Positions 60,219 to 61,400 of a stretch of 64,000 bases of DNA are shown here, in pieces. The notes beneath the pieces are model-generated. The model was not told the origin of the DNA and did not search any database. It was given only the letters and a program-made list of their open reading frames with translations. This DNA is from a virus (taxonomy: Duplodnaviria > Caudoviricetes): the IMG/VR virus record IMGVR_UViG_3300031134_000004, positions 96,001 through 160,000 of that record. One strand, given 5' to 3'. Each line of letters opens with the position of its first letter. The stretch's first letter is position 1. The translations under genes were made by a program, and so were the position numbers.

Positions 60219-61400
60219 ATGAACCAAGCAACTCTCATCGCCAACGACAACAACATGATCAAAACCCTCGTGCGCGGTGCGTACGACGTGCAAAAGCTGC
60301 GCGTGCAAATGGGTAACCGTGTGGCTGGTAACTTCCGCGCCAAGCTCGGCATGACCCCTGACGGCATGAGCGAAGACGACCTGGAAAAAGAACAAAAGAA
60401 AGTCCTGGACGTTCTGCGCGCTTCGTACGTTCGCATCACCGACGGCATCATCGCTGAAGGTGGCGGGATCGAAGGCGGCAAGCTGCCAACAGCCAAGAAG
60501 TTCGTGGGTGATGAAATCATCAGCACCTACACCGAACTCGTTCTCGTCGAACAATACATGAGCTTGCTCGGCAATGAAGAGAAGCACTTCCAACATCTGG
60601 GTAAAGTGTTGGCAGGCATTCCGATTTACGATCAGTTCCTGTCGAAAGTACGTGGCTGCGGCACCGCCATGGCAGGCGTGATTCTGTCGGAGATCAACAT
60701 CCACCGCGCCGAGTACGTCTCGAGCCTGTGGGCTTACGCTGGCCTGGACGCTGTCTACGTGGCTGAGTACACCGACGACAAGAACAAGGTGCACCAGATC
60801 CCAGCGTGGAAGGTCGATGCGCACTACGATGCCGGCAACACTGACGACTTCCTGGCTGAAGGCAAGTACCCAATCACCATGACCTCGGTTGGTCGTTCGC
60901 GTCGTGAAGTGTGTCTGGTTGACCGCGAGTACACCACCCGTGAAGGTGACACTGCAACGCGCAAATCGATCACGTACAACCCGTTCCTCAAGACCAAACT
61001 GATCGGCGTGCTGGCAACGTCGTTCCTGCGTTCGGGCGGTACGGTGCTGGTCAACGGCGATCGTCTGGGTGCTGCTAAGCGGGCTCTTCTGGCCAAGGAA
61101 CACGGCTACACGGGTGAGAAGGACGAAGATCAGCAAAACGCCTTCCTGCGCTCGAAAGGTTTTACTGTGGAAGTGGACCGTAGCGAATACGCTGCTGCCT
61201 ACTACAACTACAAGAACCGCATCGAGAACGATCCACGTCACGCAAGCAAGACCGACGGCCACCGTCATGCCATGGCGCTGCGCTTTGCAGTCAAGCGTTT
61301 CCTGGCTGACCTGTACCGTCACTGGCGTCCACTGGAAGGCTTGGCAGTTGCACCAGAATACTCGGAAGCCAAGCTGGGTAAAGTGCACGGCAAAGCTTAA
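60219..61400 (+). CDS. TasA-like Nop/IS110-C-terminal-fold protein, no nuclease domain
   Basis: N-terminal helix YDVQKLRVQMGNR; FLSKVRGCGTAMAGVILSEI...SSLWAYAGLD; YNPFLKTKL; YYNYK..; HAMALRFAVKRFL; no DEDD/RuvC or HNH seen; 52 nt downstream of array. Confidence 0.85.
   Translation: MNQATLIANDNNMIKTLVRGAYDVQKLRVQMGNRVAGNFRAKLGMTPDGMSEDDLEKEQKKVLDVLRASYVRITDGIIAEGGGIEGGKLPTAKKFVGDEIISTYTELVLVEQYMSLLGNEEKHFQHLGKVLAGIPIYDQFLSKVRGCGTAMAGVILSEINIHRAEYVSSLWAYAGLDAVYVAEYTDDKNKVHQIPAWKVDAHYDAGNTDDFLAEGKYPITMTSVGRSRREVCLVDREYTTREGDTATRKSITYNPFLKTKLIGVLATSFLRSGGTVLVNGDRLGAAKRALLAKEHGYTGEKDEDQQNAFLRSKGFTVEVDRSEYAAAYYNYKNRIENDPRHASKTDGHRHAMALRFAVKRFLADLYRHWRPLEGLAVAPEYSEAKLGKVHGKA

Follow-up and report, generated by a model that had tools for sequence, protein, structure and literature searches.

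A TIGR-TasA locus in a nucleus-forming phage

The window analyzed here is the 64,000-nucleotide stretch of virus record IMGVR_UViG_3300031134_000004 that spans positions 96,001 to 160,000 of that record; coordinates prefixed G000 are those of the complete record. Towards its right end the window contains a gene, tasA, lying directly downstream of a long array of repeats. Together, ORF 60219–61400 and the array constitute a dual-repeat TIGR-TasA system of a chimallivirus. The features of the locus are as follows.

58176–60187, + strand: dual-repeat TIGR array in which a 36-nt unit (35–39 nt) recurs about 55 times, directly upstream of tasA; its ends were read by eye
60219–61400, + strand: tasA, encoding 393 aa, a coiled coil and a Nop domain without a nuclease domain
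60354–60527, + strand: expanded coiled-coil tip (residues 46–103), shorter in compact relatives
60756–60890, + strand: insert A (residues 180–224), net acidic, at the wedge base; predicted as beta hairpin, helix and short beta elements
61038–61184, + strand: insert B (residues 274–322) at 'insertion 1', directly after the basic residue R271 of helix alpha4
61359–61388, + strand: Y381 and H390 of the C-terminal loop, candidate residues for tigRNA processing
61411–61438, + strand: intrinsic-terminator-like hairpin directly 3′ of tasA, a pattern match only

Further downstream is a gene for an 1180-aa protein (63175–64000 in the window; G000:159175–162717) with no PHROG match at E 1e-5.

The genome belongs to the Chimalliviridae. 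It encodes a chimallin (G000:25415–27358; PF25677, E 2.8e-35; phrog_4795), a PicA homologue that matches phiPA3 gp63 (G000:35379–36824), multisubunit RNA polymerases, and polymerases and a capsid of the phiKZ type. I-TevI-type DNA-binding domains are also present, both here (approximately 49268–49426 in the window; G000:145268–145426) and at loci L303–L313; eight of ten records of chimallivirus type have them, and the 17 other virus records searched had none.

The gene product is a TasA, as the original prediction had it. Sequence matches of the ORF in the PDB are to TaTasR and SpTasH only, the TIGR array adjoins it, and an AlphaFold2 model (mean pLDDT 92) aligns with SpTasH at Z 18.1 over 210 residues and with TaTasR at Z 17.2 over 196 residues. 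The latter alignment runs from TaTasR residue 109 on, which indicates that TasA has no nuclease domain; a RuvC or HNH domain is absent from its N-terminus, and the model begins with a coiled-coil helix. It shares with TaTasR (PDB 9MTY) and SpTasH (PDB 9W03, 9W04 and 21KL) the Nop and coiled-coil fold, a basic residue ending alpha4 and a C-terminal tyrosine (Y381, aligned with SpTasH Y289 and conserved at 0.98), but departs from them in its lack of RuvC/HNH, in having Ile or Val at the alpha4 aromatic position, and in its inserts at the wedge base and insertion 1. The invariant histidine H390 (conservation 0.99) is two residues beyond the ungapped position of SpTasH H296, where TasA has a lysine. 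Relative to TaTasR the protein is also expanded at the coiled-coil tip and the wedge hairpin, expansions that compact relatives mostly have too; the tip is about 58 aa in TasA and 48 aa in the compact forms. The alpha4 aromatic position, residue 262 here, is described as conserved in TaTasR, SpTasH and PlTasA; this TasA family, compact forms included, seems to have Ile or Val there.

A related C-terminal RNA-binding fold (Z 13.1) is present in IS110-family transposases (Pfam Transposase_20; ISCro4, 9T56, and IS621). TasA nonetheless has no N-terminal DEDD RuvC-like domain, with ISCro4 aligning from residue 124 only, and has a TIGR array in place of a bridge RNA; it does not qualify as an IS110 transposase.

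The TIGR array

Each unit of the array consists of an edge repeat (AGTGTATCA), a 9-nt spacer A, a loop repeat (AGTCACCCA) and a 9-nt spacer B. We parsed 54 loop-to-loop units between 58195 and 60168, and truncated edge-like repeats are located at both ends. TIGR arrays are characterized by an edge repeat with two base pairs and a loop repeat with one (PMC12045711). In the AGTGTATCA repeats the 2:7 pair is present in 93% of units and the 3:6 pair in 85%, and the edge consensus over 126 arrays covaries among G-C, A-U and G-U and between C-G and U-A; AGTCACCCA has the 2:7 pair only. The two covarying pairs thus identify the former as the edge repeat, and the single pair identifies the latter as the loop repeat. 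Both contain a box C/D pair in which box D reads AG, not UG.

The system is like other dual-repeat TIGR-TasA systems such as FpTIGR (Faure et al. 2025, PMC12045711) in its solo coiled-coil and Nop protein and in its adjoining 36-nt dual-repeat array with 9-nt spacers, a two-pair edge and a one-pair loop. It differs from them in that two folded inserts and a longer tip add about 105 residues to this TasA in comparison with its compact relatives, in its occurrence with chimallin-encoding phages, and in its long and degenerate array. Matches of the guides to their own 225-kb genome did not rise above control. When 420 guides were compared with 2.0 Mb of nine related phage genomes there was one match at one mismatch and 38 at two, with mispaired controls giving 1.6 and 48, respectively.

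Two inserts at established sites in the Nop domain

A survey of Tas proteins defined two segments, the 'wedge' and 'insertion 1', at which clade-specific inserts occur mainly in stem-loop Tas proteins, the dual-repeat Tas proteins being compact with minimal variation (10.64898/2026.09.09.750476). The peptides that had been singled out as inserts in this TasA are present in the ORF at residues 180–223 (44 aa, following AGLDAV) and 274–322 (49 aa, following FLRSG). Both are genuine insertions: between conserved anchors the two segments are 47 and 49 aa long, where 169 compact relatives have medians of 6 and 3 aa, for net inserts of about 41 aa (A) and 46 aa (B), and typical TasA relatives are without them. 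Positioned by way of a compact relative, insert A corresponds to the turn at TaTasR D214–N215, within the wedge (G210–K230), and insert B to Q247–T249. Both sites are within the Nop domain, and Tas effectors are located at the N-terminus. The suggestion that the inserts lie where an effector might be is not supported, as these are the published wedge and insertion 1 hot spots and neither insert has conserved residues of catalytic type.

Unrelated inserts of 31–97 aa are present at one or both sites in several compact-clade proteins (L016, L070, L147, L156, L159, L185, L190 and P0109), with no more than eight gains on the tree; several of those at site B are rich in Trp and basic residues. Two double-insert relatives contain inteins, of 373 aa in P0123 (L203:1715–4006) and 356 aa in P0136 (L204:4370–6637), at a common site immediately upstream of the GLD motif preceding insert A, and the P0123 intein has a LAGLIDADG match.

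The cryo-EM structure of PlTasA provides a second point of reference. Its hairpin C, which begins three residues after the alpha4 basic residue, touches the phosphate backbone of the DNA at the unwinding junction; box D is touched by hairpin B, which comes ahead of the wedge hairpin (10.64898/2026.08.11.744272). Using landmark residues from the published numbering rather than alignment or superposition, the offset from PlTasA to TasA is +11 ahead of insert B (R260 to R271) and +49 past it (H292, H299, R306 and K310 to H341, H348, R355 and K359), so that insert B would be about 38 residues longer than hairpin C and in the same place. We infer that insert B occupies the position of hairpin C and insert A that of hairpin B.

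Both inserts are ordered in the full predicted model, in which insert B forms a beta-beta-alpha-alpha-beta mini-domain; modeled alone, insert B also folds (pLDDT 82.6). They are less well conserved (0.51 and 0.54) than the core (0.70–0.89). In insert B the conserved positions include V278, G280, K287, R288, A292, G296, L310 and G314. The insert keeps a core of glycines and hydrophobic residues, and its conserved charged positions are four basic ones (R288 at 0.97) and a single acidic one. Insert A has a mean net charge of −3.5 and moderate conservation in which mainly structural residues are kept. Conserved His or Cys residues are lacking from both, and acidic positions reach a conservation of about 0.7 at most. 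Covariation between inserts and core gave a signal that is mostly phylogenetic noise.

Searches with both inserts by family and fold (Pfam for each member, PDB profiles, ESM Atlas features and structure, Foldseek on the PDB, and VIA-align wide, with an Atlas model as the structural query for insert A) returned nothing significant. In shape, insert B is best matched by a stand-alone protein of 56 aa from an Aeromonas phage (TM 0.71, E 0.037). Weak resemblances (Z no greater than 3.3) are to LEM, SAP and Rho-N two-helix modules and to the I-TevI DNA-binding domain; against these HeH (LEM/SAP/Rho-N) and I-TevI/NUMOD1-type domains Z is 2.4–3.2 over 36–44 residues with an rmsd of mostly 2.5–3.5. 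To see whether insert B derives from an I-TevI-type domain, its profile was compared with such domains from these phages, and the score of 10.8 fell within the range of shuffled sequences (mean 7.5, maximum 11.4).

A subfamily associated with chimalliviruses

A search of 5.8 billion proteins identified 1458 relatives, of which the top 103 have lengths of 378–461 aa; after them come shorter forms, about 285 aa, that lack both segments in alignment. Homologues of both inserts are present in 139 proteins, and B together with a diverged A in 15 more (in a redundant set). The double-insert proteins extend from about 45% to 75% identity with R288 near-invariant and very few losses seen. B-only proteins exist, but among the relatives examined none has a homologous insert A without B. 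On a tree built from the core alone the insert label is strongly clustered, and a single origin of insert B is not rejected (p-AU 0.96, the constrained tree being 143 log-likelihood units above a quick free tree, with five long-branch rows left out). Insert B probably arose first and once, and A was probably added in the lineage of nucleus-forming phages.

Nine of ten virus records with a double-insert TasA encode both chimallin and a phiKZ-type DNA polymerase, the tenth being a 26% fragment, although five of the ten are mutually close and the count thus overstates their independence. Chimallin is found in none of 18 records with a compact or unrelated-insert TasA, most of which are small or partial. 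Similarly, neighboring genes with homologues in other chimalliviruses are present at all 20 double-insert loci of at least 8 kb and at 7 of 85 compact loci. Of the two B-only loci, one has no such neighbor and the other a single one, suggesting that insert A may be the addition specific to chimalliviruses. Among annotated phage records only the jumbo phage phiRSL1 (Mieseafarmvirus), a non-chimallivirus, was matched, so that no cultured chimallivirus host system was found; the phiRSL1 protein has a short hairpin at site A and no insert B. The proposal of a jumbo-phage-specific subfamily is therefore upheld as to the subfamily but not as to its scope, since the distribution of chimallin and the phiRSL1 protein show it to be linked to chimalliviruses and not jumbo-wide. 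Because the association represents a single lineage, it is not by itself proof of adaptation to the phage nucleus. The phiRSL1 gene, ORF034 (L302:2441–3478) of a cultured Ralstonia jumbo phage, is Tas-like and annotated as a transposase, and the approximately 1.4 kb that follow it are without annotated genes and may hold an array.

Arrays at double-insert loci have a median of 26 units, compared with 13 at compact loci, with 15% rather than 5% of spacers departing from 9 nt and a repeat uniformity of 83% rather than 91%. The array of the B-only locus L199 behaves like the double-insert arrays in length, spacers and repeats. The 9-9-9-9 architecture is the same, however, and several double-insert loci (L004, L007 and L008) have regular arrays. 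Within the insert-B clade as a whole (the window array at 58176–60187, L001–L010, L199 and L201) the arrays are longer and more degenerate than in compact relatives, and the edge is AGTGTATCA, not A(A/G)CGAG(T/C)CA. Two double-insert tasA genes (L200:10001–11212 and L203:1715–4006) have no array detected adjoining them; the first is located about 150 nt after a gene with a phiKZ capsid-family match, and the second is on a short contig.

Possible roles of the inserts

Nuclease-free TasA proteins are RNA-guided repressors, and those Tas inserts that have been characterized touch nucleic acid. We give about an even chance to the view that the inserts are nucleic-acid-facing appendages on an RNA-guided roadblock, B adding DNA grip at the junction and A supporting the wedge or the guide. 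As in published Tas proteins, the array would be transcribed and cut into 36-nt guides, and a TasA dimer would bind one guide, open an 18-bp target with one spacer paired per strand, and block transcription without cutting. The inserts would then be small accessory domains that have arisen at two surface sites permissive for insertion. From the end of alpha4, insert B would reach in the direction of the junction where the DNA is unwound, and it would most likely grip the backbone there with its hairpin and the basic start of its helix (R282, K287 and R288), strengthening the hold of the nuclease-free roadblock. Insert A would grow from the wedge-base turn beside box D and most likely prop the wedge or contact the guide repeat. 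PlTasA (10.64898/2026.08.11.744272) and the insert-bearing stem-loop Tas proteins (10.64898/2026.09.09.750476) are similarly nuclease-free or nuclease-dead with accessory elements at the same sites, but they use stem-loop guides, whereas the large inserts here belong to a dual-repeat system of unchanged guide length. Some observations fit less well. The net acidic character of insert A makes it a poor fit with nucleic-acid contact, and a DNA-grip role leaves the tight association with chimallin-encoding phages unexplained. The searches of the own genome and of the nine related phage genomes yielded no natural target, and insert B has neither a significant fold match nor a profile match to I-TevI-type domains above the shuffled range.

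That association, seen in the chimallin counts, the neighboring genes and the chimallin and PicA homologue of this very genome, is among the points in favor of one or both inserts, most plausibly the acidic A, being a docking surface, either for PicA-dependent nuclear import or for contact with the phage RNA polymerase. Import, which is species-specific and relies on folded surface patches (PMC11087766), would also fit a variable acidic surface. We regard docking as the main alternative, though a rather unlikely one, and the position of the inserts facing nucleic acid speaks for a simpler role. The published import signals are small patches on existing domains and not added modules (PMC11087766), one lineage is a single event that inheritance alone may explain, other Tas proteins have gained unrelated inserts at these two sites time and again, and no targets of the guides that would call for nuclear entry were found in their own genome or in other chimalliviruses. 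Prediction of a complex between the PicA homologue and the Nop region of TasA gave a score of 0.00, which neither supports nor opposes docking. The recurrence of unrelated inserts in compact relatives, together with the lower conservation of inserts than core, also suggests that A and B could be near-neutral passengers at permissive loops, kept because they are folded and structurally entrenched, but their retention over such a range of identity, with R288 near-invariant and losses very few, makes this improbable.

The longer arrays, irregular spacers and less uniform repeats of double-insert loci, and of L199, raise the question of whether the inserts have co-adapted with long and sloppy arrays, holding guides with 8–11-nt spacers and degenerate repeats. 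We consider this a little more doubtful still, given the shared architecture and the regular arrays of several double-insert loci, and the contrast is that of one clade and may reflect the age or size of the arrays. Finally, a TasA without a nuclease domain and with two folded inserts might be thought to hide a catalytic effector in them, or to use them to recruit a partner nuclease encoded nearby, and a weak match to RuvC is seen, about 4 kb upstream, for a gene that occupies the corresponding place in the gene order of a relative. Such a role appears very improbable: the inserts have no conserved catalytic set of residues, no neighboring gene family is common to more than three of 15 independent loci, and insert B is confined to Tas proteins apart from four weak repeat-type matches among 1.84 billion representatives.

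Implications

The type of system and its insertion sites have been published already. For the subfamily and its association with chimalliviruses we found, in the literature searched, no publication that joins 'TIGR-Tas' with 'jumbo', although the clade may already be included in the TIGRSafari data set. These roughly 140 proteins form a TasA subfamily that is tied to nucleus-forming phages and departs from the published compact trend of dual-repeat systems, and its compact, B-only and A-plus-B members provide natural deletion pairs with which the function of Tas inserts can be addressed. Inserts that proved to tighten DNA binding would be leads towards stronger compact repressors, and the two sites may be tolerant of fused domains. 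It is also conceivable, though we think it unlikely, that the modules license TasA for PicA-dependent nuclear entry or dock it to the phage RNA polymerase. It would then act as an RNA-guided regulator, or as a weapon against competitors, inside the shell, from which host RNA-guided DNA-targeting systems are excluded. Should one insert prove to be such an import license, TasA would represent a naturally occurring RNA-guided DNA-binding protein with access to the phage nucleus, and the insert a portable import tag.
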